In this document: piece by piece, positions 1,092-53,374 of the stretch
How positions within the stretch are numbered: position 1 is the stretch's first letter
How the letters are laid out: each line of letters opens with the position of its first letter
Assembly (NCBI GenBank): GCA_964519305.1
Contig: CAZFHY010000001.1
Coordinates: forward strand, 122,032 to 186,031
Direction: 5' to 3'
Length of the DNA stretch: 64,000 nt
From: Candidatus Undinarchaeota archaeon
GTDB lineage: Archaea; SpSt-1190; JASMDC01
The notes under the pieces: generated by a model
The model's database searches: none
What the model was told of the DNA's origin: nothing
The model's input: only the letters and a program-made list of their open reading frames with translations
Position numbers and translations under genes: made by a program

Positions 1092-4000
1092 GTGGAAGCG
1101 AGAGCTGTCGTGATGGCCCTGTGCCTTGCGCTCGTGACGGTGTCCGCACTGGACGTAGCGCCCTCTTGCACCGGCGCGTTCACAGATTCCGGGCCTCTTG
1201 ATAAGGGTGCGGCTTCGACAACAGTAGGCGCTCTTGCGGCCTACGCTCACCAGAAGTGCGCCCAACGTGCCATCGAAGGATGCTGTTACTTCGTCGTCGG
1301 CTCGGTACCAGACGGATTCGACCACTGCGCCGTCGCCTCCAACGGTTACATCTGCGACACGGACGGCGATCCCTGCTATCACGTGAACCAAGTAGTTGAT
1401 GGCGGACATCCAAAGTGCTGCCAGGACCTTACGTCCCAGACCGCTCATGGTTCGTTCGTGGCATTCTCCCTCGAGAGTGTGGCCCCGTTCTCCTCAGTAT
1501 CTCTCCGCCTCACGGCGACCTGTTCCCCCGGGACGTCCACGGTGTGCGAAGCGGGACCCTCTGTCGCTCTGGCGACGTGCACATCATCATCATGCGATGA
1601 CAGCTCAATGGATGATTGTTCCCCGCGTCCCGCCGTCACTTTCACCGCGTCCGGGGAAATCCTCACCGCTGACATTTCGGCCGATGTGCTCGATACTCTG
1701 GCCGCAGGGAGCACCTCTTTAGGGCTCAGGCTCACTGCACCAGCAACGACCCATACCTTCTCCTGGCCGACCGATACGCTCTGCACAGAGGTCTACTATG
1801 AGGATAAGGGACGGTGCGATGTCGTTGATGGGACGAAGCACACTGGCGTGCAGCTCATTGGAGACGGTGCACCAGCGCTCATCATCGACCGTTCCTGTAC
1901 GAACGGGAGGGATTGTGGCCCCGGAGATACCTGGGAATGCATCCTCTCGCAGGGGATCACCGGCCAGTGCGGCGAGTGCTCGGACAATCCCGGAGCACCA
2001 TGCACGACCCGGGAGGGAGCCAACGGTTTCTGCTGTGGTTCGGTCTGCGCACCCGTCCCGTTCATCTGGGCCGATGCCAGCGGGGACGGTCGCCCGCCGG
2101 GTGAGGTGTGCGGGTCCAGTACGTGCTCAGGCACCATCGACTGCAGTAATGCGGCATGGGTCTGCTCCTCGACAGGGAACACATGTTGTAAGGAGGACGC
2201 TGTGCGCTCGTGCTCGACCGCCGGGGTGTGCGATGCCGAGGTCACGACGGAGTGCGCTCCCTATCTATGCACGAACGGCTCGTGCGCCACCACATGCGTG
2301 GACGATGACGGGTGCGCGAACGGGTACGCCTGTATCGAGGGGGCCTGCCGCCAGCGGTGCTCGTCCACGCTAACCTGCGCAGGTAATCCCTGCGTGGATA
2401 CTAACAGTGACGCTAAGCTTGATGCCTGTATGCCCTGCGCTTCGGGAGGGCAGCGATGCGGGCTTCCCGATGGGGGATCAGGTTTCTGTTGTGGTGGTTC
2501 CTGTAAAGTGCCTCCGTTCAACGTCGACAAGAGCGTCGGTGTGCTCTCAGCCGATGTCGGGTGCGGGACCGGCCAGTGCGCAGGAAAGGCCCTCTGCACC
2601 GAGGACTGGCTCTGTGATACCAAGGGCACGGGCTGCTGTACCGACGACCGCCAGGGCGCGTGTACCTCCGCGGGTTCCTGTGAGACGAAAACGGACTGCA
2701 ATCCCTTCAGGTGTGACGGGAACTCATGCGCTACAAGCTGTACAGACTACAAGGGATGCACGACAGGGTGCTGTGCCGGAAAAGTATGCGTGGCCTTCGG
2801 TTCCGTGAGCGAGGGCGACCCATGCCTTGAGGGATGTCAGTGCGCCACAGGTCTGTGCGACAAGGGCGTTTGCCGCACAGCGCCCACCTGCATCAGGGCC
2901 GACGAGTGCGAGAGCGGACTGTGCGTGGAGGGGGTGTGCCGTGATACCTGTGGACCGGACGGTGCTACCTGTCGTACCTTGTCCGGTGTGGGTAACTGCT
3001 GCGCAGGCTCATGCCTGGCCGCACCTACCGGTCTCTCCCCGGACGGGGCGTGTGGGGCAGGCAACTGCACGGGCACGGTCATCTGCCGAGGAACGTGGAT
3101 ATGCTCATCGAACAGTACCGCCTGCTGCTCCACAAGCGATGCTGGTTCCTCGGCTGCTGGGTCATGCTCGTCCCTGGGCGAGTGCCTGCCGTCCGAGGTT
3201 TGCCTTCCCGGATGCGATGGTGTCCTCTTCCTGGTCCGTGGATGCTCTGCAGGAGCATGTACACCGGTAAAGCAGGAGGTCTGTACGGGACGCTGTACGT
3301 CCGAAGGGTGCGTAGGATGCCTAGAGACGACCGACTGCCCTCCCACTGAATGCGAGGGTACCGTACTAGTAACACGCTCGTGCGTGGACACTACCTGCAT
3401 CGAGGAGGAAGCGGACTGCGGGGCGGACGGGCTCGTATGCACGCCCGACGGTTGTACTGGCTGCAAGGGGGATACGGCGTGCACCGAACTCTATGGTGAA
3501 GGATACGCATGCCATCTACCTAGCGGTACATGTCGCCTTGCCGTCTGCAGGTCCGATGACGAATGCCCCGGCACCTGCGCTAATAATACCTTCGTCCCGG
3601 GACAATGCCATGACCTGGTATGTGTCCAAGGTGAGCCCGTACCTTGTACCCTGGGCGAGGTCTGCTCGCTCCAGGGATGTACTGCATGCACCCATCGCGT
3701 GAACTGCAGCATAGCGTACGGCCTCGGGCGCTCATGTGTCGCAGGCAGGTGCGTGGACCTCTGCGGGGACGGTACTTGTGATGCCGAGGAGAACTGTCGT
3801 CTCTGTCCCCCGGATTGTGGATGTCCCACCGAGATCATGTGCGATCCCCTTGCCACGCAGGGTGATACGGCCGGGTGCGTTGGGGATGAGGACGATGATG
3901 GGATCATCGACTCGCGGGACCCCCGTCCCCGCGACGGGGACAACATATGCGCACGTAACCAGGACTGCCAGCCGGCCTGCTACACCAACGTACTCTACCA

Positions 4001-5390
4001 GTTCCGGTGCGTGAACGGGGGCTGCACGATCCTTGAGAAAACACCCTGTAGTGACGAGCATCTTGTGTGCGATCCTGTCGTTGGGACGTGCGGACGATGT
4101 TCTGATGACGGTCCATGCCGCACCCTCATAGGCCCCCATGGACAGTGCTTCAAAGGCACCTGCCTTCCTGATTCGGACGAGGATGGTGTGCCAGATACCA
4201 TCGATCCCTGCCGCCTCGATCCCACCAACACCTGCACGATCCGGTGCGGGGACGAACTGTGTGACGATGGTGAGGACTGCGTCACCTGTCCCCAGGACTG
4301 TGGATGCGATGACGGCAACCACTGCACTAAGGACGTGTGCGATCCGGACGCCCGCATTTGCGCCAATACACCCCTTCCCTGTGGTAGCGGGTGCGGTGGG
4401 GGTAATGTGTGCGACGGACGCGGCGGGTGCGGTGAACCGGGTGGCGAAGCCGCCTCATGCGGCTGCACGGAAGTCTGTCGACGTGGCCTCATGTGCCTCC
4501 AAGGATCATGTATTGTAGCGACATGCGGTGACGGTAAATGCGAGAACGAATGTGGCGTCTGCCCAGAGGACTGCCCACCGTCAACGTGTGCCGGGGACGG
4601 GACGTGCGATCCTACGACCGGCGAGGACTGTCTCACATCAGCCGACTGCGCCTGCACGACAGGGGACCTGTGCGATCCGAGATCCCCTCTCGCTGACGTC
4701 AACGGATGTGTTGGCGGATGCGGGGACGGGCGGTGCCATCCCGATGAGTGCGCCTTCTGCGCAAAGGACTGCTCCGTGTCCGACTGCAGCGGGAATGGTG
4801 TCTGTGACACGGCCATCGGTGAGAGCTGTACCACCAGCAACGAGGACTGCGTGTGCCATGCCGACGTGAACGTGACGTCCGAGGTCGAGTCCGAAGCAGG
4901 TACGTGGACATCCATACCCATTCAGGTCCATAACGACGGGACGCTCGCGGACCGCTTCGTCATCATGGTCAGCACGTCGCTCGATAGCAAATGGGAGCGC
5001 GTGGAGACCTCTGAGATGGAACCGAACGCCACCCAGTTCCTCACGCTCGAGGTACAGGTCCCGGAGAAGGCAGGTCGTCATCCCGTCCGGATCCGTATCA
5101 CGCCCAAGAGCGACCCATCAAGTGAGGTCGAGCGCACGGTGATGGTCGAATCGGCGGTCAAGGGATGGCTCGAACGGACCCTGGAGGGCACGATCCTTGG
5201 CTGGGTCCTGGACATAAAGGACCTCCTTGAACTTGTGTTCATCATCGTGTCGCTGGCCGGAGCAGTCGTACTTGCCTTCCGCAAGCGCGGTCAGCTGGCG
5301 CGTTCGGCCCAGACTGGTGCCCCGGCGGTCTACAACCAGCCACAGTCCATGTACAACAATATGCGGTACTATGGACCGTACTACCGGTGA
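1092..5390 (+). CDS. Giant Cys-rich cell-surface protein (CGDG-type repeats, thrombospondin type-3-like Ca-binding motifs, C-terminal Ig-like domain, TM anchor, Tyr-rich tail)
   Basis: 1432-aa ORF with a signal peptide. Repeats such as CGDGTCDAEENCRLCPPDCGC, plus DEDDDGIIDSRDP and DSDEDGVPDTIDPC. TM LVFIIVSLAGAVVLAF is followed by RKR and a Y/N/Q tail. Confidence 0.85.
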   Translation: MEARAVVMALCLALVTVSALDVAPSCTGAFTDSGPLDKGAASTTVGALAAYAHQKCAQRAIEGCCYFVVGSVPDGFDHCAVASNGYICDTDGDPCYHVNQVVDGGHPKCCQDLTSQTAHGSFVAFSLESVAPFSSVSLRLTATCSPGTSTVCEAGPSVALATCTSSSCDDSSMDDCSPRPAVTFTASGEILTADISADVLDTLAAGSTSLGLRLTAPATTHTFSWPTDTLCTEVYYEDKGRCDVVDGTKHTGVQLIGDGAPALIIDRSCTNGRDCGPGDTWECILSQGITGQCGECSDNPGAPCTTREGANGFCCGSVCAPVPFIWADASGDGRPPGEVCGSSTCSGTIDCSNAAWVCSSTGNTCCKEDAVRSCSTAGVCDAEVTTECAPYLCTNGSCATTCVDDDGCANGYACIEGACRQRCSSTLTCAGNPCVDTNSDAKLDACMPCASGGQRCGLPDGGSGFCCGGSCKVPPFNVDKSVGVLSADVGCGTGQCAGKALCTEDWLCDTKGTGCCTDDRQGACTSAGSCETKTDCNPFRCDGNSCATSCTDYKGCTTGCCAGKVCVAFGSVSEGDPCLEGCQCATGLCDKGVCRTAPTCIRADECESGLCVEGVCRDTCGPDGATCRTLSGVGNCCAGSCLAAPTGLSPDGACGAGNCTGTVICRGTWICSSNSTACCSTSDAGSSAAGSCSSLGECLPSEVCLPGCDGVLFLVRGCSAGACTPVKQEVCTGRCTSEGCVGCLETTDCPPTECEGTVLVTRSCVDTTCIEEEADCGADGLVCTPDGCTGCKGDTACTELYGEGYACHLPSGTCRLAVCRSDDECPGTCANNTFVPGQCHDLVCVQGEPVPCTLGEVCSLQGCTACTHRVNCSIAYGLGRSCVAGRCVDLCGDGTCDAEENCRLCPPDCGCPTEIMCDPLATQGDTAGCVGDEDDDGIIDSRDPRPRDGDNICARNQDCQPACYTNVLYQFRCVNGGCTILEKTPCSDEHLVCDPVVGTCGRCSDDGPCRTLIGPHGQCFKGTCLPDSDEDGVPDTIDPCRLDPTNTCTIRCGDELCDDGEDCVTCPQDCGCDDGNHCTKDVCDPDARICANTPLPCGSGCGGGNVCDGRGGCGEPGGEAASCGCTEVCRRGLMCLQGSCIVATCGDGKCENECGVCPEDCPPSTCAGDGTCDPTTGEDCLTSADCACTTGDLCDPRSPLADVNGCVGGCGDGRCHPDECAFCAKDCSVSDCSGNGVCDTAIGESCTTSNEDCVCHADVNVTSEVESEAGTWTSIPIQVHNDGTLADRFVIMVSTSLDSKWERVETSEMEPNATQFLTLEVQVPEKAGRHPVRIRITPKSDPSSEVERTVMVESAVKGWLERTLEGTILGWVLDIKDLLELVFIIVSLAGAVVLAFRKRGQLARSAQTGAPAVYNQPQSMYNNMRYYGPYYR

Positions 5391-12869: not shown

Positions 12870-14090
12870 CTAGAAGAACCTCAATCTCGCGAGGTTGACG
12901 ACCGCCATACTGAGCGGGAACCCGACGGTCGACAGGAACTTCGTCAGCGTCTCCTTGTCGAAAGGCCAGACGGGCATATCGCTGGCCTTCCTGTACAGCT
13001 CTTCAAGGTCATTGAGCTTTCTGAGCTTCTCGGGATCCACGTCCCGGTCCTCGTCAAGGACCTCGTTGTATATCGATTCGTAATAGGAATTGGTCTTCCG
13101 GCTCAGCCGGTCGAGCAGGTCGATCTTCTTCTCGCTCATGAGATGGTGGACCTTATGGAGGGGGTAGAAGAAGAGGAGCGTGGCGAGGGCCATGTAGACC
13201 ACTATCCCGGAATAGACCACCCACAACTGGGACGGGCTAGCGGTGAACAGCCCGACGCTGAGCCAGATACCGACGGCCAGGAGGACCGAGTCGACGGAGA
13301 AGCTCAGGTCGCCCAGAGGCTTCAGTCCGCCGGAATGGTCGGGGTGAAGCGGCTGGACGTTCAGGTCGAACTCATCGCTCAGCCGTCTCAGGTAGAACAC
13401 GGTCACGAGCACCTTCCATACAATGAGAGCGAAGAAGACCGCTATGAGCATGTCCCCGAGGACGTAGGAGCCTCTCGTCACCGGGAACCGGTCCACGGTG
13501 CACCAGTCGTACTCGCCTACGGGGATGCTGAAGTTGACCACACCGACGATGAGCGCGAACACGAGAGCGAGGAGGTATGCGTCCTTGTGATTGAGACGTC
13601 GCTCGAAGTCCTTGAGGAAGCTTCGGTACTCCTCGCGGAGCTGCTCGAGGTCCGAACTATCCCCCTCCTTCAGAGAGATTGTCTGCTGGTCCCACAATCG
13701 GTCGTAGCAGAGATTGGTATTGCGGAAAAGACGCTTGATCAGAGGGATGGAGAGGATGAGTATCAGATAGCCCGGAACGCGCCATCGCGATGAACAGGGC
13801 AGGTGCCACAACGCCCAAGCTCCAGAGGCGAGGCGACTCCCCCCGAAGGGAGCGATGCTACGGGCGCTCGTGCCAGTGGCATCGGCCATCTGTTCCGCGG
13901 TGGGGAGGCCGTGGTACCCGATTATGGATAGCAGGATGCATAGGAAAAGAACGACAATGAGATGGAAATTATCCATGAGCCCCTTGACGTAGGGATTGTC
14001 GACCAACGTGATCTCATAGAAGATGCCAGCTACATCGTCATCTTTTAGATCCAAGGTAGATACCAACCCCCGCAATAAGGTCCTGAACAC
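12870..14090 (-). CDS. Multi-pass membrane protein of unknown function
   Basis: Several TM segments, with motif-like HPDHSGGLKPLG and C-terminal PVWPFD. Confidence 0.75.
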   Translation of the reverse strand: MFRTLLRGLVSTLDLKDDDVAGIFYEITLVDNPYVKGLMDNFHLIVVLFLCILLSIIGYHGLPTAEQMADATGTSARSIAPFGGSRLASGAWALWHLPCSSRWRVPGYLILILSIPLIKRLFRNTNLCYDRLWDQQTISLKEGDSSDLEQLREEYRSFLKDFERRLNHKDAYLLALVFALIVGVVNFSIPVGEYDWCTVDRFPVTRGSYVLGDMLIAVFFALIVWKVLVTVFYLRRLSDEFDLNVQPLHPDHSGGLKPLGDLSFSVDSVLLAVGIWLSVGLFTASPSQLWVVYSGIVVYMALATLLFFYPLHKVHHLMSEKKIDLLDRLSRKTNSYYESIYNEVLDEDRDVDPEKLRKLNDLEELYRKASDMPVWPFDKETLTKFLSTVGFPLSMAVVNLARLRFF

Positions 14091-14135: not shown

Positions 14136-14339
14136 ATGGAAAAGGGTTCTATCAAGATCGTGGGATACGGCGTACACTCCGGCGAGGGCCGGCTCAGCTG
14201 GACATGCAACTGCGAGGGCGAGCACGCGCCCCATCACGGGCTCCAGATGCAGTACGGGCTGCTGGCGAAGATCCGCTGCCCCAAGTGTGGGACCGAGGCC
14301 ACTATACTTGGCGACGAGGTCCCCAAGATCCTCGAGTAG
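14136..14339 (+). CDS. Small putative Zn-ribbon protein
   Basis: 67 aa with CNC...CPKCG. CTATAAAAAA box about 30-40 nt upstream. Confidence 0.6.
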   Translation: MEKGSIKIVGYGVHSGEGRLSWTCNCEGEHAPHHGLQMQYGLLAKIRCPKCGTEATILGDEVPKILE

Positions 14340-14403: not shown

Positions 14404-16860
14404 CTACCGGACGCTCGCCTCGAACTTCGCGCGGAAGTCCTTGTCCTGGCTGAACCGGGTTATGTAGTCCATGAACACCGGTAGGCTAAGGCTGCCCGGC
14501 TGCTGTTTGTGCCTGTAGTACAGGCTCTCCAGGAACTTCATCCGGACGTACCGCTCCCGTTCGTACTCCTGGTCGGTCATGTCCATGTTGTACTCGGCGA
14601 TACGTCTCTCCAGGGGCGAGAGGCCTTTCACCATGCGCACCACCTGCTTGGACTTGGTGTCGTACTTGTACACCTGCAGGAGCGGGGGGATGTCCAGTTC
14701 GGCGGGCTTGGACTTGTCGATCTCCACGATCTCGATGACGCGACGGAGCTGAACACGCTTGCGCTCCTTGGAGTCGTAGAACGAGAGTCGCCGCTGTACG
14801 AGGATGATGTCCAGGGTCTGGATATCCATGGGAGCGATGTTCATGGGAGGATTCTTCATGCGCTTGGCGGCCGACGTGGCGTCCAGTGCGTGGAACGTGC
14901 ACATACATCCGCGTGCCTGTCCGGCCAGCACCGAGTTGATGAAGGCCCGCGCCTCTTCGCCCGAACGCACCTCACCCACGATGACCCGGTCAGGCCGCAT
15001 ACGCAGAGTATCCTCCAGCAGGTCCTCCATCCCGATCTCGGCCTGGGGAACGGTGACGACCCGGGCCTGGTGGTTGTGGGGCAGGTTGATCTCGGGGGTT
15101 GACTCCAGAATGATGATGCGCTCGTCGGGCGGGATGAACGTCGAGATGGCATTGAGGGTGGTGGTCTTTCCCGAGCCGGTGTTTCCGCCGATGAGCATGG
15201 AGATCTCGTTCTCCAATGTCAGCCACATGTAGGTGAGCGCGTCGATCGACATGGTACCGAACTCGGCGATCTCGATGGGGGTGAGCGGGTTCGCCCGGAA
15301 CTTGCGGATGGTGATGAGCGAACCGGTCAGGGTCATGGGACTGATGCACGCATGGAGACGGGAGCCGTCGGGAAGCCGGGTGTTGACCCGAGGGTGCATA
15401 TCATCGATCTTTGCCCCCGGCTGGGATCGCACCATGCGCTCGATGATGGCCCGCACCTCCATCTGACCTCCCTTGTCGGGATTGAAGAAGATGTTGGTCT
15501 TGAGCATCCCGTACTTGCGGTGGTAGACGTAGATAGGCCGCGCCTGGCCCACACCGATACCCATTACCTCCTCCAGGGCGTCGTCCTTGAGCAGGAGGTC
15601 GAAGGGACCGAACCCCGTGGAGTTGAGGGTCGCGAGCATGGAGAGAGGGTCCAGCTTCTCCGGGTCCACGCCAGCACCCATGTACCGGGCCACCTCTAGG
15701 ATGAACGCTTTCATCTGTTCGTACGTGGACGTGTTGAGCGAACCCGACTCGATGAACCGGTCGATGGAGCGCTTGATGATGGTACGTTCCACATCAGAGA
15801 TCGAGGGTATGACGTTCACGTAGTACACGGGCTTGGGTTCGCTGGGGACCATGGCGATGGAACCGAAGGTACGGGCGGTGCCCTCGTCATTGATCACGAT
15901 TGGCTCGAGCTCACGGATCGACTGGGCAGGGAAGACCGACAGCGACCATGTACCCGTGTCGACGGCAGCGCTGACCTGCTCGGCATGGACGGCCTCGATG
16001 GCGTTGAAGCCCTGGTTGGCGCATTCCTCTAGACAGAGGGGATGGTCGGCGACGCCGTAGCAGATGTCGCACTTCCGGGCGATGTCCCCGAGCACCCAGA
16101 TGGAATCGTAGGGGCATGCTTTGACGCACTCGCCGCAGCCAGTACACCTGTCCTCCTGCACGCTGAGGATGTCCTTGCCCGGCCCCACGGGCACGATGGC
16201 CTTCTCGGGGCACGCCTTGGCACAGTCCGCGGTCTCGGGCGTACAATGCTTGCACATGATGGGTGCATTGTCGAATTTGATCGCCTGCTTGGGGCACACA
16301 GGGACGCACTTGGCGCATCGCGTGCATGAGTTGTAGTTGATCGCGATCTTTGAGGACATGGGTGCCGAGGTGTTGGCAATCTTTATATGGGGTGTGTTTT
16401 CGGGCAGTTCCGATGGTGGGGATTCATCCCCCTTGCCCTTCTTCTTCCCGGTCTTTGCCTTCTGCGTCTGTCCTTTCCCCTTCGCAGGAGGCGCTTCCTT
16501 CTTCGGCGGGGCAGGGCTAGGAGCAGGGGGCGGGGTCTTTTTCTTTGGAGGCACCTCCTTCGGCGGTGTCGGCTTCGGGACCGGAGGCGGGGATTCCTTC
16601 TTGGAGGGTGCATTCTTCGGCGGTGAGGGCTTGGGTGCGGGCGGAGTCGTCGCCTCCGGAGGCGGAGACTGTTCCTCCTTCTTGGGAGGTACCTTCTTCT
16701 TAGGAGTTGTCGGGATGGATACCCGTCGGGATTGTTTCTTTGTGCTGATGGCGTCGGGCATCCGTTCGATACGCTGGAGCTTGGCGCCCTTCGCGCCTGC
16801 AGGCAGCCGTGGTGGTGGTGGTGGAGGTGCCTTCTTCTTCCCCTTCTTTTCCGGGCTCAT
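14404..16860 (-). CDS. TadA/CpaF/VirB11-family secretion ATPase with N-terminal Pro/Lys-rich region and multi-[4Fe-4S] ferredoxin domain
   Basis: Walker A GNTGSGKTT, LRMRPDRVIVGEVR, TFHA, LPDGSRL and ITIRKF. Cys motifs CTRCAKCVPVCP, CKHC..C...CP, CTGCGECVKACP and CDIC......CLEEC lie in the same frame. Confidence 0.9.
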   Translation of the reverse strand: MSPEKKGKKKAPPPPPPRLPAGAKGAKLQRIERMPDAISTKKQSRRVSIPTTPKKKVPPKKEEQSPPPEATTPPAPKPSPPKNAPSKKESPPPVPKPTPPKEVPPKKKTPPPAPSPAPPKKEAPPAKGKGQTQKAKTGKKKGKGDESPPSELPENTPHIKIANTSAPMSSKIAINYNSCTRCAKCVPVCPKQAIKFDNAPIMCKHCTPETADCAKACPEKAIVPVGPGKDILSVQEDRCTGCGECVKACPYDSIWVLGDIARKCDICYGVADHPLCLEECANQGFNAIEAVHAEQVSAAVDTGTWSLSVFPAQSIRELEPIVINDEGTARTFGSIAMVPSEPKPVYYVNVIPSISDVERTIIKRSIDRFIESGSLNTSTYEQMKAFILEVARYMGAGVDPEKLDPLSMLATLNSTGFGPFDLLLKDDALEEVMGIGVGQARPIYVYHRKYGMLKTNIFFNPDKGGQMEVRAIIERMVRSQPGAKIDDMHPRVNTRLPDGSRLHACISPMTLTGSLITIRKFRANPLTPIEIAEFGTMSIDALTYMWLTLENEISMLIGGNTGSGKTTTLNAISTFIPPDERIIILESTPEINLPHNHQARVVTVPQAEIGMEDLLEDTLRMRPDRVIVGEVRSGEEARAFINSVLAGQARGCMCTFHALDATSAAKRMKNPPMNIAPMDIQTLDIILVQRRLSFYDSKERKRVQLRRVIEIVEIDKSKPAELDIPPLLQVYKYDTKSKQVVRMVKGLSPLERRIAEYNMDMTDQEYERERYVRMKFLESLYYRHKQQPGSLSLPVFMDYITRFSQDKDFRAKFEASVR

Positions 16861-17570
16861 GCGGAGAACCCGGCCTCCTTCTCCATCTCCACGAGCTCCG
16901 AATCGAGCTGTTCGTCGTCGACCTTCACTGAAGCGGATTGGATGTCCCGCTTCTTGTCGCGGAGGTCTGCGAGCTTTTCTTCATAGCCCTCAAGGTCACG
17001 GTCGATGAGGGACAGCGTCTCCACGATGAGGTGGAAAGGATCCTCGTCCTGGAGCACCTCTTCCCGACGGCCCAAGCTCTCGGTCTCCTCCCTGGATATC
17101 TTCAGAGACTGCTGATGGTTGGCGATGCCTTCCACCATCAACCGACATTTCTTGACCAGGTTCTGCAGGTTCTCTTTGCTCTTGAGCTTGGCCTTTATTG
17201 CGAGCTTGTTCATGATGAAGGTCCTCGCCCCAGTGGCGTTCCCGCCCCGGAGGGTCATGAACGCCTCCTGATGGAAGTGCATGATCTGGTTGTTGTAGGT
17301 CACGTCCTTCTGCCGGATAATGTCGATCTCTTCCTCCGTCTTATCGACGAAGTCCTCGACCTCGATCCGCCTCTCCTTGAGCCGGTCATCGAGCGCCTCT
17401 ATGTTCTGGATGATCTCGTAGGCGCGCGGGTCCGTGAAGGAACCACCCTTCCTCTTCTTCTTCAGAAGGAGGATGAGCACGATGGCGAGCACCCCGATCC
17501 CCCCAACTCCGAGGAAAAGGTAGAGCGGATCGATACCCAAGATGGGGTCCATGCCTTCAAAGGGGTTCAT
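16857..17570 (-). CDS. N-terminally membrane-anchored coiled-coil protein, Snf7/ESCRT-III-like
   Basis: ATG 17570 has a GAGGT RBS and a TTTATAT box upstream. TM LYLFLGVGGIGVLAIVLILLL is followed by KKKRK. The helical hairpin QI...EA...L..GN...A and C-terminal VDDEQLDSEL resemble Snf7. Its stop overlaps the ATPase start (ATGA). Confidence 0.7.
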   Translation of the reverse strand: MNPFEGMDPILGIDPLYLFLGVGGIGVLAIVLILLLKKKRKGGSFTDPRAYEIIQNIEALDDRLKERRIEVEDFVDKTEEEIDIIRQKDVTYNNQIMHFHQEAFMTLRGGNATGARTFIMNKLAIKAKLKSKENLQNLVKKCRLMVEGIANHQQSLKISREETESLGRREEVLQDEDPFHLIVETLSLIDRDLEGYEEKLADLRDKKRDIQSASVKVDDEQLDSELVEMEKEAGFSA

Positions 17571-17604
17571 GCGCTCGGACCTCGGTGTTGAAATGATATA
17601 AAGC

Positions 17605-19887: not shown

Positions 19888-19962
19888 GGGCCTGTGGTCT
19901 AGTTGGTCCATGACATCCGCCTTACTAGCGGGGGATCGCCGGTTCGAATCCGGCCGGGCCCA
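19888..19962 (+). tRNA. tRNA-Val (TAC)
   Basis: Acceptor GGGCCTG/CGGGCCC+A. Anticodon arm TCCGC-CTTACTA-GCGGG. T arm GCCGG-TTCGAAT-CCGGC. CCA is not encoded. Confidence 0.92.
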
Positions 19963-19976
19963 TAGGCCGTCGCGGA

Positions 19977-20053
19977 GCCGATGTGGTGTAGCCTGGTTAG
20001 CACCGGGGACTGTGGATCCCCGAGCTCGGGTTCAAATCCCGGCATCGGCCCCA
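19977..20053 (+). tRNA. tRNA-His (GTG)
   Basis: Acceptor GCCGATG/CATCGGC, discriminator C, encoded CCA. Anticodon arm GGGGA-CTGTGGA-TCCCC. T arm TCGGG-TTCAAAT-CCCGG. Confidence 0.95.
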
Positions 20054-43297: not shown

Positions 43298-46200
43298 ATG
43301 CGAACGCCAATCCTAGTGTTCCTGCTGGTGGTCTGCCTTGCGTCGGGCGCCTACCACGCGTGCTGGACCGAGTCCGATTGTCTTTCCGGTACGACCGAGT
43401 CTTGCGTGCTCGAAGATGGCAGCTGCGGTGTCCCCGCACTGTCCGTTCCGGTGCTGGAGACCGGGCTATCGTGGGGCGAGGAGAAGACCTTCACGATCCA
43501 TGTGGCCAACAACGAGACATTCCAGCGACCCATCGACGCGGTGTTCGCCATCGACCATACAGGGAGCATGCGTGACGATCTTGAGGAGTTCAGGAACACC
43601 TGGGCCGCTATCACAGAAGTGCTCAAGACCAAGTCCGAAGGTAATTTCCGAGTAGCCCTTATCCCATTTGCCAACCAGTTCACCCACAGCTTCGGTCCAC
43701 CAAAGCTGCCCCTCCCATTCCAGGACTTCTATGCTGACGAATACGCAGCCGACGCCGCTATCCAATCGGGGCTTGCGGCGATCTATGACCGTGTCACCGG
43801 CGGAGAGGAGTGTCGAGAGAACTCCTACGATGCGATCCAGTACGCCGTGCGTGAGAAATGGGCCTCGGACTGGGGAAGCCAGCTCCCCGAGAACCGGTGG
43901 CGTGAGCAGTCCCTGAAGCTCGTGTACGTGATCACCGACGCGGCGGTCTTCACCGGGATGTACGCCAGCATGCGGAACCTTGCCGACGAGGCCAAGGCCA
44001 AGCGCATCGTAGTGTTCGGGTTCACGCCCGATCCCGATGATCCTAAGTACCGCTCACCCTGTCCACCCACCTGTCCCAGATGTACGCGCTCAGGTAGTAC
44101 TTGTGAACTCCTGTGCTCCTTCGTACCTAACCCGGAGGGTGATGATATCGAGGTGTGCGAGAGCAAGTGCTGCTCAGGGAATCCATCATGGCTCGGTGTG
44201 TACACGGACAAGTGCGAGCCCGACGGTGGTGGTTCGACGGTATGTGCGGACAAGACGTTCAGGCCCGGGCTCCTCATGGAGAACTACCAGTACTGCTACG
44301 ATCTGATCAATGTCACTGACGACACTGGAGGCACCTATTTCAAGTCCTTCGACAAGGCCGAGATGCGGTTCAAGATCACACAGGCCTTCGAGGAAGTGGA
44401 CTTCAACCATTTCAAGCTAAAGACACGGAAGGTGTCCGGTCCGGGGGATCTCGAGATCTCGCTCCCCAGTCCAGAACAGTTCAATGTAGAGGTATGTGAC
44501 GTACTTTTCGAATGGCCTGACGAGGCACAGGACCCACCATGTAAGATACGGTCGAACCTGAAAGTAAAGGTTCCCGACGGAGTGCTGGAGGGCGAGTACG
44601 TCTACAACGTGACGCTCGAGGCGGATACGGGATATACAGAAGAGCTCCAGATACGTGTCCAGGTCCGTACACCCGTCCTGGCGACGATCACCTACGCGGC
44701 CACAGCTCTCTACGACCGGGTACTGGTCTTCCTGAACCTAACGAACACAGGGATCCATAAGACACTTCAACCGGTCACGTCCATGTCGAGCATATCCTGC
44801 GCAGGGAAAGATGCCAAGGTGTTCTGGGGTCCGGGCTCCGACAGCGTACCTCCTGGCGAGAGCCTCACGGCGGTGGCGGACTGCACCGGCGCAAGCATGA
44901 CCTCCAATGGGATGAGTCTTCGCATCACCGAGGTCAGCCCCCTGCTGCTTACCGGGAACCTGGGTGAGAAGGTTGAGATCATGGCCAACATCACCAACCT
45001 CGCAGGCTCCACACTTCTCTACCTTGACAACGCACACTTCTTCACTCTGACCCTGAACGGTGCCCCCCTCTCGGGGAAGGACGTCGTGTATCTCAACGGG
45101 CCCAAGCTCTATCGCATCGTTGGGAGCCTCCCTGCCGGAGCAGCTATCGATGGTTACAACGTGCTCGAGGTGAGCATCAGTGAATCGGGCTCCTCCGCAT
45201 CGGACTTCGCACTCCTACGAAAGGGAACCCCTTCATTGAAGGTATCCTCCCATCTCCAGCTCGGCCTATCGAGCACGGAGGTGCTCACTGCCCCAGATAC
45301 CACCAGAACAGTATCTACAGCGGCGGACCCGCTCGTTCTGGGTGATTCATCGCTCTTCACCCATACCGACTTCTCGCTAGGAGGGCTCAGCAGGAAGACC
45401 GGGCCCGAGCTCGTCGTCAACCATACCCTGAAAAGGGGCTTCATCATGTTACGTTCCAAGCGGAAGGACGACGGGACTGTCACTGTGCCGTACAATCGTA
45501 CCGGTGCGCTCCCCGCCACTATCACACGTACCGTCACCCTGCCCTACCTGATGGAGCACGACCTCGACCTTATCGGGTTCTCGGACGGTGCCATCGGCGC
45601 GTCCCGGCTCGATCCTGCGACCAACGTGCTGTTCGGTTCCATGGCCCTTCCCGACGCCTCGATCGACACCCTCCGTGAGGGATGGTACGGTCCAGTGTTC
45701 GGCGTGCGACTCGACTATGAGAACTACACGCTTTACAGGCCGGGGATGCTCCCGTTCATGTTCTCCAGTCCAGAGCCGATCCCATCCATTACGGTCGACA
45801 TAGCGGCCCCGTTGGTGAACCGGACCCTTACTCTAGAGCCTGGAAAGGGCGGTATCGATGAAGATACGCTCTTTGCTAACGCTACGGTACAGCCCAACGG
45901 CGGGGTCGTACTCGAGGTCCACGTGGGCGTGGCAGAGGAAGGGACGGTGCGGGTCAACGTCTCCACCGACATGAGGAACGAGGTGATAATCACGGTCCCC
46001 TATGCGGAGATCGAGCCCTTCATCCTCGACGCACCGTCGTCCATCTCAGCCGTCCCCAACCTTACTACGGAGTTCTCTCTGGGGATCAGCAACCACAGGC
46101 CCGATGACGACACGTTCCGCGTGTGCGCGAAAGGGGACGGTGTGAAGGTATTCGCGGGTGACACGGAGCTCACGTCGGTCCCAGAGGACACCGGTTCAAG

Positions 46201-48292
46201 ATATGGGAAGCCCCCGCCGGTCCCGCCGTGCCACGAAGTGACCGGGAAGGCAGGGCAGAGGACGGCTGTCAACCTGACGATCGAGCTCACACGGGAGGAC
46301 GCTGCGTCCCTCACTCTCAACGTCACGTCCATAAGCGATCCATTGCTCGAGCGATTGGCCGAGATCGCCGTGAAACCGGCGGACTTCTCCAAGTCCGCCA
46401 TCACCCTCACAGGATGCCGGAAGAATCAATGGAAGCTCATCTGCTCCTTCCAGGCCATCAATGGAGGGAACACGGAGAACACCTACCGTTATGCTGTGAT
46501 GCCGGACCTGATGGTCGGGGACCTCACCTACGAACAGTTCACCCTGGGCTCAAAACAATCCAAGGTCGTCGATGTCTCGGCCCTCCTGGTGGCGTGCGAC
46601 ATCAGCCTTGAAGCAAGGGCCAATCTCCTGGCACTGGGAACTGCTCATTTCATCGGTCGGACCTTTGCCAGCGAGGACGGCTATGCTCTCACGAGCGGGA
46701 TGGACGAGATGGCTGCTGCCTTCGACACCCTCGCGGGAGCTCATGAACTCCTAGGGCTCGATGACGCGACGCGGACCGCATTAATGAGCGCTGTCGATGC
46801 GTTCAAGAGCATGCCCAGTAAGGACACCGGGGACGCACTGGCCACGGTGGCGGCTGCGGCCAATGAGGCGTTCGTGGCCTCGCTCAAGACCACTTGCACA
46901 ATGAGCCATGCCAAGAAGATCTCCGCCAACATCATGGTCTGCGACACGCCCTTGAAGGTCCAGGACGAGTCGACCTTCACGTGCAACAGCAAGGCTTTTA
47001 CGCTAGAGGACGTAAAGTTCCCCTTCGACTGCGACGTCGAAGCCAATGAGGAACTGGAGAAGGTCCTCGAGGACGGCGAGACATACGGTGTGCTGATAGG
47101 TCAGGAGGCGAAGCTCCCTATCGTGGTGCGGAACCGGATGCATTTCGACCTGCTATTCGACTTCAGCGCGTCGGCGAGCTACGACCTTGAGAACGCTCTT
47201 CTGGAGGAATCCAAGGTGCTCATCACCTCCGATGAGGAGCACTTGTTCACCGTGACCATCAAGCTCGATGACGAGAGCGACCAGCGCCTTTATCTTAAGA
47301 CAACCCCGTCAGGGATGCCGAAACGGACCCAGGGTTTCGAGATCGAGCTCAGACCTGAATTGGATGTCAAGGTCAGCTTCGACGCAACGCCCCATTTGAC
47401 CACTTCCGATGTGGAGGCAACCCAGAGCATCGATCTCATTGTCGAGGTGCACAACACCGGTAATAGTAAGGAGACCTTCACTGCCACCCTGGATGGCCCC
47501 ATAGCAGATATGTCCTCAATCATCGACGATAAGATTGATCTCGCTCCCGGCGAATCATCGAACATCACCGTCGCCGTCACGACAGAGAAACGTGGGACTG
47601 TGAAGGGCACGCTGAAGGTCACGACGAAGAGCGATGAGTCGGTCGTCAAGGATGTCGATCTCTCTGTTACCGCCACTGCGCCCGAGATCATCGCGAAAGC
47701 TCCTGAGAGCCTCGATGGCACGGGCACCATCGTCGTGCGTAACGATGGTGAGATGGAGGGAGAGGTCGATGTGAGCATCACCGGGGACGCCTCGTCCTGC
47801 GTCAACCTCGTCAACAGCAGCGTTGTGGTAACAGCGGGCGGATCTGTGTCAGTTGCTTTGGAGAACGAGTGCGAGGAAGCAAGTGAGATTGAGGTCACGC
47901 TCGAGGGGGCGGGATTCTCTAAGACATTCACCCTCAAGGTGGCCGCCATGGCGACACCGGAACCCAGCGATGATATGCCTATCGACAATGGGTCCATCGA
48001 CGATGGGCCCACACCCGAGGCCCCCGAAGATGAGGAAGGCGGTATGGGGATGGGGCCGGTAATCATCGTAGGCGTTCTTCTCGTGATCGGGGGTGGTGTC
48101 GTTGTCATGAAGAAGAAGAAGGCCGCTACGGGCACCGGTGCTGCGGCGAAACCGGGTGCTGCGACTGCAGCCCAGAACATGCAGCAGGGACGACAGGGGG
48201 TGCAAGGCCAGCAGGCCGCCTATGGAGCTGCTGGTTATGGCGCCTACAACTCGAATTATATGAATAGGTATCCCTATTATGGGAGGCGGTAA
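43298..48292 (+). CDS. Giant vWA-domain surface protein with Ig-like array, TM anchor and Q/G/Y tail (paralog 1)
   Basis: Signal peptide, DAVFAIDHTGSM (MIDAS-like), ENSYDAI, VITDA and TGG.YF. Many NxT/S sequons. TM is followed by KKKK and a low-complexity tail. Confidence 0.88.
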   Translation: MRTPILVFLLVVCLASGAYHACWTESDCLSGTTESCVLEDGSCGVPALSVPVLETGLSWGEEKTFTIHVANNETFQRPIDAVFAIDHTGSMRDDLEEFRNTWAAITEVLKTKSEGNFRVALIPFANQFTHSFGPPKLPLPFQDFYADEYAADAAIQSGLAAIYDRVTGGEECRENSYDAIQYAVREKWASDWGSQLPENRWREQSLKLVYVITDAAVFTGMYASMRNLADEAKAKRIVVFGFTPDPDDPKYRSPCPPTCPRCTRSGSTCELLCSFVPNPEGDDIEVCESKCCSGNPSWLGVYTDKCEPDGGGSTVCADKTFRPGLLMENYQYCYDLINVTDDTGGTYFKSFDKAEMRFKITQAFEEVDFNHFKLKTRKVSGPGDLEISLPSPEQFNVEVCDVLFEWPDEAQDPPCKIRSNLKVKVPDGVLEGEYVYNVTLEADTGYTEELQIRVQVRTPVLATITYAATALYDRVLVFLNLTNTGIHKTLQPVTSMSSISCAGKDAKVFWGPGSDSVPPGESLTAVADCTGASMTSNGMSLRITEVSPLLLTGNLGEKVEIMANITNLAGSTLLYLDNAHFFTLTLNGAPLSGKDVVYLNGPKLYRIVGSLPAGAAIDGYNVLEVSISESGSSASDFALLRKGTPSLKVSSHLQLGLSSTEVLTAPDTTRTVSTAADPLVLGDSSLFTHTDFSLGGLSRKTGPELVVNHTLKRGFIMLRSKRKDDGTVTVPYNRTGALPATITRTVTLPYLMEHDLDLIGFSDGAIGASRLDPATNVLFGSMALPDASIDTLREGWYGPVFGVRLDYENYTLYRPGMLPFMFSSPEPIPSITVDIAAPLVNRTLTLEPGKGGIDEDTLFANATVQPNGGVVLEVHVGVAEEGTVRVNVSTDMRNEVIITVPYAEIEPFILDAPSSISAVPNLTTEFSLGISNHRPDDDTFRVCAKGDGVKVFAGDTELTSVPEDTGSRYGKPPPVPPCHEVTGKAGQRTAVNLTIELTREDAASLTLNVTSISDPLLERLAEIAVKPADFSKSAITLTGCRKNQWKLICSFQAINGGNTENTYRYAVMPDLMVGDLTYEQFTLGSKQSKVVDVSALLVACDISLEARANLLALGTAHFIGRTFASEDGYALTSGMDEMAAAFDTLAGAHELLGLDDATRTALMSAVDAFKSMPSKDTGDALATVAAAANEAFVASLKTTCTMSHAKKISANIMVCDTPLKVQDESTFTCNSKAFTLEDVKFPFDCDVEANEELEKVLEDGETYGVLIGQEAKLPIVVRNRMHFDLLFDFSASASYDLENALLEESKVLITSDEEHLFTVTIKLDDESDQRLYLKTTPSGMPKRTQGFEIELRPELDVKVSFDATPHLTTSDVEATQSIDLIVEVHNTGNSKETFTATLDGPIADMSSIIDDKIDLAPGESSNITVAVTTEKRGTVKGTLKVTTKSDESVVKDVDLSVTATAPEIIAKAPESLDGTGTIVVRNDGEMEGEVDVSITGDASSCVNLVNSSVVVTAGGSVSVALENECEEASEIEVTLEGAGFSKTFTLKVAAMATPEPSDDMPIDNGSIDDGPTPEAPEDEEGGMGMGPVIIVGVLLVIGGGVVVMKKKKAATGTGAAAKPGAATAAQNMQQGRQGVQGQQAAYGAAGYGAYNSNYMNRYPYYGRR

Positions 48293-48294
48293 GG

Positions 48295-51200
48295 ATGGGG
48301 GATGGAATCACAAATAGGTCCCGGACCAATGAGCTTAAGGGGTGCCTGTCGGGCCTTTTATTCCTGGTGCTCATCCTAGTAACGGTCCCCGCGGCCGGTG
48401 AACGTTCCTACATGTGCTACACGGACATACACTGCGACCTCGGTCTTTGTCTTGATGACTGGAACTCCTGCGTTTCACCTTTCCTCGCCAGGAACGAGAC
48501 AATGCTAGACCTGTACTGGGAGGACACTAGCGAGGTAGGTGTGCTCACCTTCAATCGCGGAGGGCGGGCCAAGTCGATCGACGTTGTCTTCGTCACTGAC
48601 TTCACGGCCAGTATGGCCGACGACCTTGAGCAGTTCATCACTGACTGGGACAGTATTGTCTATAATATGGGCTCCAAGGTCAACAACAAGCTCCGTGTGG
48701 CAATGATCCCCTTCCAGGACGAGCTCGTACGTAAGCTGCCCGGGCCCACCGGTGATCCCATCGATGTGCTCACGACGTTCAAGGACTTCGAGACCGACAC
48801 CGATGTCAACATCCAATATTTCAAGGACCGGCTCCAAGTGCTCAAGGACAGGGCAGAGACAGTAGGCGGGGGCGGTGACTGCCGCGAGAACTCCTACGAT
48901 GCGATAAGGTACACAATCGAGGAGGATTGGGGCCGTGACTACGAGTTCGGTGCGCTCCCGGGCGTGTGCGACAACGGTGCCTGTGCCTGGCGTCCTGATG
49001 CCCTGAAGATCATCTTCGTAACAACCGATGCCGCTGTATTCACGGGAAGATACAATGAGATGGAGCTCCTGGCCAACGCCGCAAGTGCGGCTGGTGTAAT
49101 CGTATTCGGTCTCACACCCAATCCATCAGAAGGTGGAGCTAAGTCCCCCTGCCCCCCCACATGCCCTCCGTGCACGTCCACTGGAAACGAATGTGGCCTC
49201 ACCTGCACGGGTGAAGGTGCAGCGCGGCTCTGCGAGTCCACTTGCTGCAGCGGAGATCCCTCATGGAAGGGCAACACTGGGGACACCTGCGACGATACGG
49301 TCCCCGATCCCAAGGACTGTTCTGGTATGGCCTGGGCGCCCGATACCGAACGTGAGGCGTACCGGTACTGCTATGACCTTATCAACATAACCAAGGACAC
49401 GAAGGGCAAGTACTTCGACGGGTTCAGCCTAGGGACACTTTCACAGAAGATCAATCTAGCCCTCGACTCAATCGATTACAACCTCATCACACTCAGCCTC
49501 GCAGGGCCCAATGAGGTACACACCGGCATCCTCAATACCATCACGGGGCGTCCGGAACCGACAACCACGGTGATGCTCCAGGCCCATACGGGCGAACAAT
49601 GTATAGAGGTCATCGAAGGGGTACCATGCAAGTCGCTCAGGCGTGTGGAGGTGACCGTGCCCGAGGGCACCCCCGTGGGCTGGTACAACTACACCCTCAC
49701 CATCTCGTCCGACACGGGGGACTCTGAGACCCTTGACTTGGATGTCGCGGTCAAGGCCCCGGTGAACGTTGACGTGGATTACGCTCCGTACGTGCTCGAC
49801 GGCAGGCTCCTGGCCTTCGTGAACATCACCAATAAATCCCCGATAGCGGCCGCTGTCCCGGACCGTGAGCGCACTGAGATATCATGTGATTCGGTGAAGG
49901 CGGGTCTGCTCTGGGAAGCAGGGATCGATGCGATCCCGCCCGGGGGTTCCACGATCGTCGTAGCTGACTGCCTCGGTGCCGCTCGCAGCTCTAACGGATA
50001 CCAGCTCATCATCGAAGAGCTATCCCCTGAGGCTATTGCGGACAGGGACCCTGAGCGTATCAATGTCACGTTCATGCTCCTCGACTCCAAGGGAGACCCG
50101 GTACCATTCATGGAGAACGCCTACCTCTATTCGATCACGTTCAACGGTAAGGACATGGGCGATAAGGGTATCGTGTACGATGTAGTGAAAGGCCGCTATA
50201 AACTAACGGTCGATGTACCGGCGGGCACGGCCAAGGACGGGTTCAATGTGCTCAAGGTCGCCGTCGACGATGCAGGGAAGACCGCCAGTGATGCCCGCTT
50301 CGTACGCTGGGGCAACGACCGTCTCGAACTCTCATCCTTCATCCCGTTCGGTGATGATCCCCGCCAGCAGGTTGACCAGGCCTCCTCCCGCAAGTTGAAG
50401 GATGTCCGCCGTCCCACCCTGGATATCGGCCTGCGGAGCCTGTTCCTTCACCAAACGTTCGTCAGAGGGGACATCGTTAAACGTGCCGGTCCTCAGCTCA
50501 TCGTCAATTACACGACCGAGCGGGGATTCATGCTCTTCCAGGGATTCGAGCGGTCCACAGGCATCATGGACGTCGTTGTGAACAAGACCGGTCTCCTTCC
50601 AGGTACGGTCATCCGGACCTACGAGAGGGAATTCGTCGAGGACCATGCGTTCTACATCGCCATCCGCGAAGGTGATGAGATAGGTGGCTCGCGCCTGATG
50701 CCTGCACAAATGGTGACCTACGGTATCCTTGATCGGGCAAGTGTCGGGATCCAACGCCCTGAGGAGGGTTGGCAAGGCGATACCTACGTTGTCGGTCACC
50801 ATTACAACAACCTCTCGCTACATCACTCCGAGGATGTCACGTTCATCTTCTCCGTACCGGAGAACGTGACGACCGTTGCGGTCAACGTATCCTCACCTGC
50901 CCTCTCGGGCCCACGACAGATCATTCTAGACAAGCAGGGCTACTCGGAGGAGGGTCTCTTTGTGAACCGGACCACGGATCTTGCACATGGGAGTCTTGTA
51001 ACGGTCCATGTCCGGGCCAAGGATGCTGGGATCCTCTGGGTCAACCTCACTACAGGTAACAGGGACCTCTTCTTCATCAAGGTGCCCTTCCGCATCACCG
51101 AGCCATTCCGTATCTCGGCCCCTGAGAACATGACAGTCGTCCCCAATAAGACCGGGGAGTTCGCATTCCGTCTGAACAACCTCATGTTCGAACAGGACAG

Positions 51201-53331: not shown

Positions 53332-53374
53332 CCATACTAAGACATAAATAGCACACAGGCGTTATAGTCCTCTT

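Follow-up and report, generated by a model that had tools for sequence, protein, structure and literature searches.

Can an ESCRT-III-like protein be held in the bilayer by a transmembrane (TM) helix and operate beside an ATPase other than Vps4? The question is posed by a gene in a 64,000-nucleotide stretch of archaeal DNA, here called the window (assembly GCA_964519305.1, Candidatus Undinarchaeota; contig CAZFHY010000001.1, positions 122,032 to 186,031 of the forward strand). The gene encodes a protein of 237 residues, P0001, and its stop codon overlaps the start of a gene for an 818-residue ATPase. A sequence-only reading, made by eye and without database searches, had taken P0001 for a Snf7/ESCRT-III relative with an N-terminal membrane anchor. 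We consider it likely that P0001 belongs to the ESCRT-III superfamily, and we lean slightly toward a fuller reading in which it is a membrane-anchored member that has no MIT-interacting motif (MIM) and works with the co-translated ATPase.

ESCRT-III proteins are pictured as soluble subunits that attach peripherally to membranes by an amphipathic helix and that, in archaea, work with Vps4. Spirals of PspA, Vipp1 and ESCRT-III are anchored to the membrane by helix H0, according to the part of a review on which we draw (PMC7619361). The same part treats joint occurrence with Vps4 as a hallmark of archaeal ESCRT-III, and it reports ESCRT-III homologues in all major archaeal lineages except DPANN.

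Profile comparison with archaeal Snf7 proteins

Evidence for superfamily membership comes from profile-profile comparison with hhalign. One profile was built from the ten-member P0001 family alignment (A4) and another from 52 archaeal proteins collected in genome searches (A5), among them Asgard-type ESCRT-III pairs, all of which (52/52) hit Pfam Snf7. The two matched with a probability of 87.3% (P 3.8e-6, score 44.4), and repeat runs gave 87.9% with a score of 43.5. The Viterbi alignment runs collinearly from helix 1 to helix 5 over 175 columns, pairing P0001 residues 57-237 with columns 11-186 of the 226 in the Snf7 profile. Within it, the family's LR..N..GAR block at the hairpin tip is paired with the Snf7 'l..GN...Ar' motif, and the acidic C-terminal block, V.V.ed.ve.EL..lE.E, is paired with the Snf7 helix-5 block. 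The strings on which the sequence-only reading relied correspond to P0001 residues 80-132 (hairpin) and 216-232 (C-terminal), and that reading had aligned the hairpin to yeast Snf7 without gaps. Here, with the archaeal Snf7 profile rather than yeast Snf7 as the reference, there is no gap across residues 80-132 and a single one-residue gap near residue 66. A posterior-realigned version of the A4/A5 match kept 80 columns and opened a 21-residue gap in helix 1. When aligned alone, P0001 residues 44-165 were placed at Snf7-profile columns 11-113 (P 1.2e-4) and residues 176-237 at columns 166-186 (P 6e-4).

None of 200 shuffles attained the score of 43.5. Column shuffles (n = 100) had a mean of 13.6 and a maximum of 21.0, seven-column block shuffles (n = 100) had a mean of 16.3 and a maximum of 30.2, and the reversed family scored 24.7 against the Snf7 profile. 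Decoy profiles from helical families also scored low against the P0001 family: 12.6 for V-ATPase D, 15.7 for prefoldin beta, 18.2 each for FlaD/E and FlaC, and 20.6 for LemA. The positive control, Snf7 against PspA, scored 57.5-64.6. Because the real score exceeds the reversed and shuffled controls, the Snf7 resemblance is more than chance composition. We regard the profile signal as real, specific and reproducible, yet moderate and not conclusive.

Predicted structure of P0001

AlphaFold supplied with eight near-identical sequences gave a model with a predicted local distance difference test score (pLDDT) of 46, and the fold search on that model was discarded. With ten sequences, including two divergent family members that had been added, pLDDT rose to 85.9 and the predicted template modeling score was 0.68. 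The helices of this model span residues 15-41 (membrane), 48-108, 112-167, 180-215 and 219-232, and the second and third form a hairpin of 61 + 56 residues. Their order and rough lengths match helices 1 to 5 of ESCRT-III and PspA proteins. PspA itself has a long helix 1 and a fused helix 2/3, as seen in P0001 with its 61-residue helix 1. Helix 5 would lie near the hairpin tip, judging by the combined length of helices 4 and 5, which is close to that of the hairpin. The sequence-only reading had put forward AlphaFold and Foldseek as a check. The hairpin, helix 4 and helix 5 are all present in a confident model; the fold searches do not point to ESCRT-III in particular, and BAR-type bundles outscore ESCRT-III entries in the PDB (see below).

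A library of predicted viral structures contained nothing at E <= 0.001 for the P0001 model. Two of its top four rows carry names, 'Snf7 family protein' at rank 3 (E 0.031) and 'PspA/IM30 family protein' at rank 4 (E 0.036). The nearest clusters in the ESM Atlas were all 'PspA/IM30', at 0.83-0.84 for P0001 and at 0.86-0.87, with 175 shared features, for its relative P0010; we treat these clusters as leads only. Together, three independent lines of weak-to-moderate evidence point to the ESCRT-III superfamily, and none points firmly elsewhere.

Evidence against superfamily membership

A substantial set of results weighs against this assignment. Most of the Snf7 signal is contributed by the family's divergent branch: P0010 and P0011 alone gave 87.7% against Snf7, and P0008, P0010 and P0011 together gave 90.6%. 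The P0001 clade alone gave 7%, but in identical register, and P0001 as a single sequence gave a probability of 6-8% (score 24-25). When the Snf7 paralogue groups were taken singly, one matched at 79.6% and the other at 16.7%. These hhalign runs were made without secondary-structure scoring and against purpose-built profiles only, and a P of 3.8e-6 would correspond to an E of about 0.1 in a library-wide search. At the residue level, the Gly of Snf7 'GN' is not conserved in the P0001 family, and helix 1 of P0001 is acidic (-6). An archaeal PspA profile, made from 31 proteins of one phylum, gave no signal with the P0001 family (score 17.3, 0.5%), and the methods disagree on the branch, with PspA-like neighbors from the language model and a profile signal for Snf7 only.

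Searches with hidden Markov models (HMMs) gave no indication of kinship. A Pfam scan of P0001 returned just sub-threshold rows for KIF9, RE_Eco47II, Spectrin and CCDC-167, with no Snf7 row at E <= 10, and an NCBIfam scan returned 0 families. Snf7 and PspA were also absent among 25 of the 31 Pfam families listed for seven family members. The sequence-only reading had suggested hmmscan against PF03357 and PF04012. That comparison found no match, and the two families had 0 matches at E <= 1 across the genome, which is 99.8% complete. Searching PDB sequences with the family profile gave 0 matches at E <= 10. An HMM built from the 52 archaeal Snf7 proteins placed the P0001 open reading frame (ORF) 377th of 1510 listed ORFs, with an E of 280; the genome's V-ATPase subunit D was among the top matches of this HMM. 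A PHROGs scan found nothing meaningful for the P0001 family, and the rows listed in the scans of P0001 and seven members were all sub-threshold and of coiled-coil type.

The solved structures nearest to the model are likewise not ESCRT-III proteins. Foldseek of the model against PDB found nothing at E <= 0.001. Its best rows were endophilin BAR domains (E 0.06, TM-score 0.48-0.49), and entries for CdvB2, Vipp1, Asgard ESCRT-IIIB, Ist1 and Snf7 had E values of 0.16-0.38 and TM-scores of 0.17-0.28. In a wide VIA fold search the highest Z was 12.5 and none of the best 50 rows was an ESCRT-III entry; rescoring of Foldseek's own matches gave a top Z of 14.0. Across the two, BAR, F-BAR and I-BAR domains stood at Z 10-12.4, with 156-192 residues aligned. 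The tool itself describes Z values under about 13 as usual among helical bundles. ESCRT-III proteins have mostly been solved as open polymers, on which a closed monomer model cannot superpose. The Snf7/ESCRT-III kinship claimed by the sequence-only reading is supported by the profile match and its five lower-scoring decoys; HMM searches find nothing, and fold matches stay at noise level.

Departures from canonical ESCRT-III proteins

P0001 begins with 14 mostly acidic residues ahead of a hydrophobic stretch, in which the best 19-residue Kyte-Doolittle window covers residues 18-36 (mean 2.93). The membrane anchor and the KKKRK cluster described in the sequence-only reading are both present, at residues 16-36 and 37-41, and the anchor is conserved across the family. 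The relatives P0008, P0010 and P0011 retain the hydrophobic N-terminal stretch, though its sequence is not conserved. By the positive-inside rule, the basic residues that follow would place the C-terminal domain of P0001 in the cytoplasm. The membrane-binding element is N-terminal in both P0001 and Snf7/ESCRT-III proteins. The two elements occupy the same position but differ in kind, with a TM helix in P0001 in place of amphipathic helix 0.

Canonical ESCRT-III proteins have a basic, membrane-facing helix 1. In P0001 this helix is acidic and, as judged from the alignment gap, about 20 residues longer than in Snf7/ESCRT-III proteins, with which there is also no Pfam-level match. A pattern of basic N-terminal half and acidic C-terminal half is seen in helix 2/3 (+6) and in helices 4 (-3) and 5 (-6), yet helix 1 carries -6. 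The soluble part as a whole has a net charge of -13 and is all-helical, without cysteine pairs or beta structure.

A MIM tail is missing, because P0001 ends five residues after helix 5. The sequence-only reading was correct on this point, and the Snf7 alignment stops at profile column 186 of 226. No MIT (PF04212) or Vps4_C (PF09336) match was detected at E <= 0.01 in the genome, and the neighboring gene encodes a FlaI/PilB-class ATPase, not Vps4. The lack of MIM and Vps4 is a feature shared with PspA/Vipp1 proteins (IM30, PF04012), to which P0001 is also linked by the language-model clusters and by the rank-4 phage protein of the viral fold search. It differs from them in its TM helix instead of an amphipathic H0, in the absence of an HMM match and in a profile probability of 0.5% (31 proteins, one phylum).

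The sequence-only reading called an integral anchor unusual; to regard it as unheard of in the superfamily would be too strong. Bacterial 'PspA and Snf7 homologs with a TM segment', beside an AAA+ ATPase, are already noted in the part of PMC11237479 available to us. Likened by that description, they share with P0001 a membrane-spanning segment and a gene that lies beside an ATPase gene. Their neighbors encode an AAA+ ATPase, an ABC transporter and OmpA-domain proteins, whereas P0001 is archaeal and adjoins a T2SSE/FlaI-class iron-sulfur (Fe-S) ATPase (PMC11237479, same part). Membrane-spanning Snf7/PspA homologues are on record for bacteria, and the archaeal, ATPase-coupled branch would be the new element. 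We found no archaeal, Vps4-less, TM-anchored branch coupled to a FlaI/PilB-class Fe-S ATPase in the literature searched. Exact phrases such as 'membrane-anchored ESCRT-III' also led to no paper; PMC11237479 words the idea differently, so absence from print is not implied.

An orphan pilus-type ATPase is encoded with P0001

The ATPase encoded immediately downstream matches T2SSE (3.3e-37) and Fer4 (7e-14) in Pfam. The NCBIfam FlaI model is closest to it (1.3e-65), yet the match is far below the cut-off of that model. Its ferredoxin-like poly-[4Fe-4S] domain, at about 195-297, contains the canonical CxxCxxCxxxCP motif twice, along with other Cys clusters. Walker A is intact, and when nine relatives are aligned with the ATPase there is no variation in the GxTGSGKT, DR..GE (Walker B-type) and His columns. 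Residues 1 to about 155 (16393-16860) are Pro/Lys-rich and of low complexity, with PPKK-type repeats, a stretch that the paralogue described below and the Fer4-ATPase of genome G027 do not have. This N-terminus is strongly positively charged and the soluble part of P0001 is acidic (-13); binding between them is putative.

A paralogous Fer4-T2SSE ATPase lies 77 kb away in the same genome (L083, 6462-8678) and is 48% identical, including the Fer4 domain. Two T2SSF platform genes follow it, as they do in G027, and unlike the paralogue the 818-residue ATPase has no platform gene beside its own. We considered a 406-residue ORF (12870-14090, minus strand) as a hidden platform protein and rejected it: there was no T2SSF match, and BLASTP against the paralogue's platform protein gave a best E of 1.5. 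A plus-strand ORF separates it from the ATPase gene, and it was left out of the unit. The gap from the ATPase gene to the next minus-strand ORF holds a putative 67-residue ORF with a Zn-ribbon-like CxC...CPKC pattern (14136-14339, plus strand). Given that the ATPase lacks a platform gene and that the next minus-strand ORF shows no sign of being one, P0001 and this 'orphan' pilus-type ATPase form a two-gene module. The ATGA overlap of the two genes suggests translational coupling. Binding of P0001 to the ATPase would be a prediction from this overlap. Complex prediction with P0001 residues 44-237 and ATPase residues 160-818 scored 0.00, below threshold, and is evidence neither way.

The region upstream of the paralogue (L083, G000:C1:38000-54000) encodes a CetZ-like tubulin (Tubulin 1.6e-16, CetZ_C 8.6e-12). 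Two large ORFs and one tubulin-sized ORF, all without a Pfam match, are also found there.

A candidate membrane-attached polymer

If P0001 is an ESCRT-III-superfamily protein, its short acidic N-terminus would lie outside the cell, followed by one TM helix and a highly diverged cytoplasmic Snf7/PspA domain, with the TM helix replacing amphipathic helix 0 at exactly that position. The cytoplasmic domains may stack via their hairpins, helix 5 touching a hairpin tip, to form membrane-attached filaments or rings. The working partner would be the hexameric FlaI/PilB-class ATPase, which carries an Fe-S domain and a disordered, basic N-terminus and has no dedicated platform protein. The P0001 polymer could dock this ATPase at the membrane, or the ATPase could turn the polymer over in place of Vps4, and the Fe-S domain may point to sensing of the redox or energy state. 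A true member of this kind would indicate that members of the superfamily can be built permanently into the bilayer, that the superfamily can shed the MIM/Vps4 module, and that recruitment by a different ATPase class may have occurred. It would also bring ESCRT-III-like proteins into a lineage for which the review, in the part cited above, reports none (PMC7619361).

These elements could be combined into a Vps4-independent ESCRT-III system in which a TM-anchored polymer is assembled, docked or disassembled by the Fe-S FlaI/PilB-class ATPase, coupling membrane remodeling to the redox or energy state of the cell. We regard a system of this scope as unlikely. If it exists, it would be the first link between ESCRT-III and a type IV filament motor, and it would occur in a DPANN-filed archaeon with a large genome, from a group reported to be without ESCRT-III (PMC7619361, same part).

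Alternative explanations

P0001 could instead be a coiled-coil scaffold, membrane-anchored and specific to this lineage, in a machine resembling a type IV pilus, similar to FlaX/ArlX, in which case the likeness to Snf7 would reflect convergence in a helical hairpin. Several observations fit such a scaffold. Its gene is probably translated together with that of a FlaI/PilB-class ATPase without a platform gene, there is no HMMER signal for ESCRT-III, and the fold matches are generic. The part of PMC5019145 we use presents FlaX as a monotopic membrane protein whose 30-nm ring serves as a scaffold and binds FlaI, and alpha-helical and coiled-coil cytoplasmic proteins are said to accompany archaeal type IV pilus loci in the part used of PMC4858521. 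With its single membrane insertion, helical cytoplasmic part and FlaI-type partner gene, FlaX/ArlX is also the closest functional analogue for the partnership proposed here. Against it, the hhalign match to Snf7 runs collinearly through two separate blocks and scores well over the shuffles and all five decoys. The archaellum proteins themselves matched the P0001 family at 0.5% (profile of six FlaD/E) and 0.9% (four FlaC), values that leave out crenarchaeal FlaX itself, which is called the crenarchaeal counterpart of FlaC/D/E (PMC4858521, same part). The genome contains no FlaD/E (PF04659) match, and no archaellin or FlaG/F/H/J genes adjoin P0001. We judge a FlaX-like scaffold to be somewhat unlikely. 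A direct assignment of P0001 to archaellum FlaC/D/E was rejected on these profile values, the lack of PF04659 and the lack of adjoining archaellum genes. LemA (PF04011) was rejected as well: hhalign against 30 archaeal LemA proteins gave 2.0% (score 20.6), and the genome has no PF04011 match at E <= 1e-8.

The structural neighbors raise a second alternative, that P0001 is a membrane-anchored BAR-like protein, unrelated to ESCRT-III, whose three long antiparallel helices would build a crescent-shaped dimer for sensing or shaping membrane curvature. The BAR, F-BAR and I-BAR domains share with the model a long antiparallel three-helix bundle and are its best neighbors among solved structures. These matches stay within the level common for helical bundles, with root-mean-square deviations of 3.4-7 A, and designed three-helix bundles and axonemal proteins score equal or higher. 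There is no sequence signal either, as no BAR family appears among the Pfam families listed. Among the named rows of the viral library Snf7 and PspA rank best, and a BAR protein appears only at rank 35. We judge a BAR-like identity very unlikely.

A third alternative would have the neighboring ATPase act on P0001 as a type IV pilin-like or secreted substrate with an extracellular helical part. P0001 has an N-terminal hydrophobic helix, which would serve as a class III signal or pilin helix, a Gly at residue 6 ahead of it, and a pilus-type ATPase gene next to its own. Yet the stretch ahead of the helix shows no conservation and is absent from P0010, five basic residues straight after the helix in P0001 and basic clusters in all relatives point to a cytoplasmic C-terminal part, and the domain is an acidic all-helical bundle. 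Judged from the sequence, this reading is scarcely credible.

Family size and lineage

The P0001 gene is real and conserved, but very rare. Eight family proteins were found at E <= 0.01 in a collection of 5.8 billion proteins. Exhaustive HMMER searches at all lengths among 1.84 billion representative proteins found two clusters at E <= 0.001 and no fused forms of the family. A word-index search with the family profile retrieved ten proteins at E <= 10, every one a family member. So small a family is easily overlooked by HMM-based surveys. Among 41 related genomes it is present in two, its own and one of the same genus, and one locus each in genome contigs and metagenome contigs carries a 93%-identical orthologue. 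Among sequencing runs no RNA run was listed, and eight DNA runs from two studies may be the source samples. Compared with the same-genus orthologue, 56 codons of P0001 differ synonymously and 16 non-synonymously. The more distant relatives P0008, P0010 and P0011 are 64%, 40% and 36% identical to P0001. They share its plan, in which a hydrophobic N-terminus leads through a basic cluster into the helical part, and the acidic C-terminal helix is conserved.

The lineage placement is uncertain, because the source labels of family members disagree: a near-identical genome record carries the label Candidatus Undinarchaeales, filed under Nanobdellati, and another source labels a family member 'Methanopyri archaeon'. 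The host genome is 3.63 Mb and that of its genus mate about 3.8 Mb, against 0.6-1.2 Mb for 15 sampled genomes of the 'same class'. This could be a large-genome lineage within a class of small-genome archaea, or one misfiled there.

Gene organization

The 237-residue ORF was confirmed on the minus strand, with its ATG at 17570 and its TGA at 16859-16857. An alternative longer frame opens at 17717 and overlaps the 3' end of the upstream gene, which encodes a GH13 glucan-branching-type enzyme and has its stop codon at 17607-17605. We take 17570 as the start, because five database homologues, each exactly 237 residues long, begin with the identical MNPFEG. The TATA-box-like TTTATATC suggests that the P0001 gene has a promoter of its own, with a leaderless or short-leader mRNA.

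Table 1. Features of the P0001 gene, its product and the adjoining ATPase gene, in window coordinates.
Feature	Position	Strand	Remarks
Gene for 237-residue protein P0001	16857..17570	-	Stop codon 16857-16859; homologues with same length and start
TATA-box-like TTTATATC	17595..17602	-	About 28 nt upstream of P0001 ATG; identical in orthologous loci L001/L069/L070
TM helix, residues 16-36	17463..17525	-	Hydrophobicity; both AlphaFold models place a helix at 15-41
Basic cluster KKKRK, residues 37-41	17448..17462	-	RRSKRR, SRRRNN and SRKVNK at the equivalent place in relatives
Hairpin helix 1, residues 48-108	17247..17429	-	Net charge -6; AlphaFold pLDDT 94-97
Most conserved block, MHFHQEAF..LR..N..GARTF..NK, residues 97-122	17205..17282	-	Invariant family columns; spans hairpin tip
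Hairpin helix 2/3, residues 112-167	17070..17237	-	Single continuous helix, net charge +6
Helix 4, residues 180-215	16926..17033	-	Preceded by 12-residue linker with invariant Pro178
Acidic helix 5, residues 219-232	16875..16916	-	Net charge -6; aligns with Snf7 helix-5 block
ATGA overlap, P0001 stop and ATPase gene start	16857..16860	-	Same overlap in orthologous loci
Gene for 818-residue ATPase	14404..16860	-	Pro/Lys-rich low complexity, then ferredoxin-like domain, then T2SSE ATPase

Other features of the window and related genomes

The prefoldin-beta matches in two small 'same class' genomes (G012:C35:16833-17123, L133, and G014:C54:2675-2971, L131) contain one in-frame TGA each, which may reflect recoding, a sequencing error or a broken gene. 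Elsewhere in the window, a 1432-residue ORF at 1092-5390 (plus strand) has no Pfam match at E <= 0.01, and three consecutive giant ORFs of 1664, 1678 and 1209 residues occupy 43298-57004 (plus strand). Genes for tRNA-Val(TAC) and tRNA-His(GTG) lie side by side at 19888-20053 (plus strand), flanked by the branching-enzyme gene and a gene for a DEAD-box helicase.

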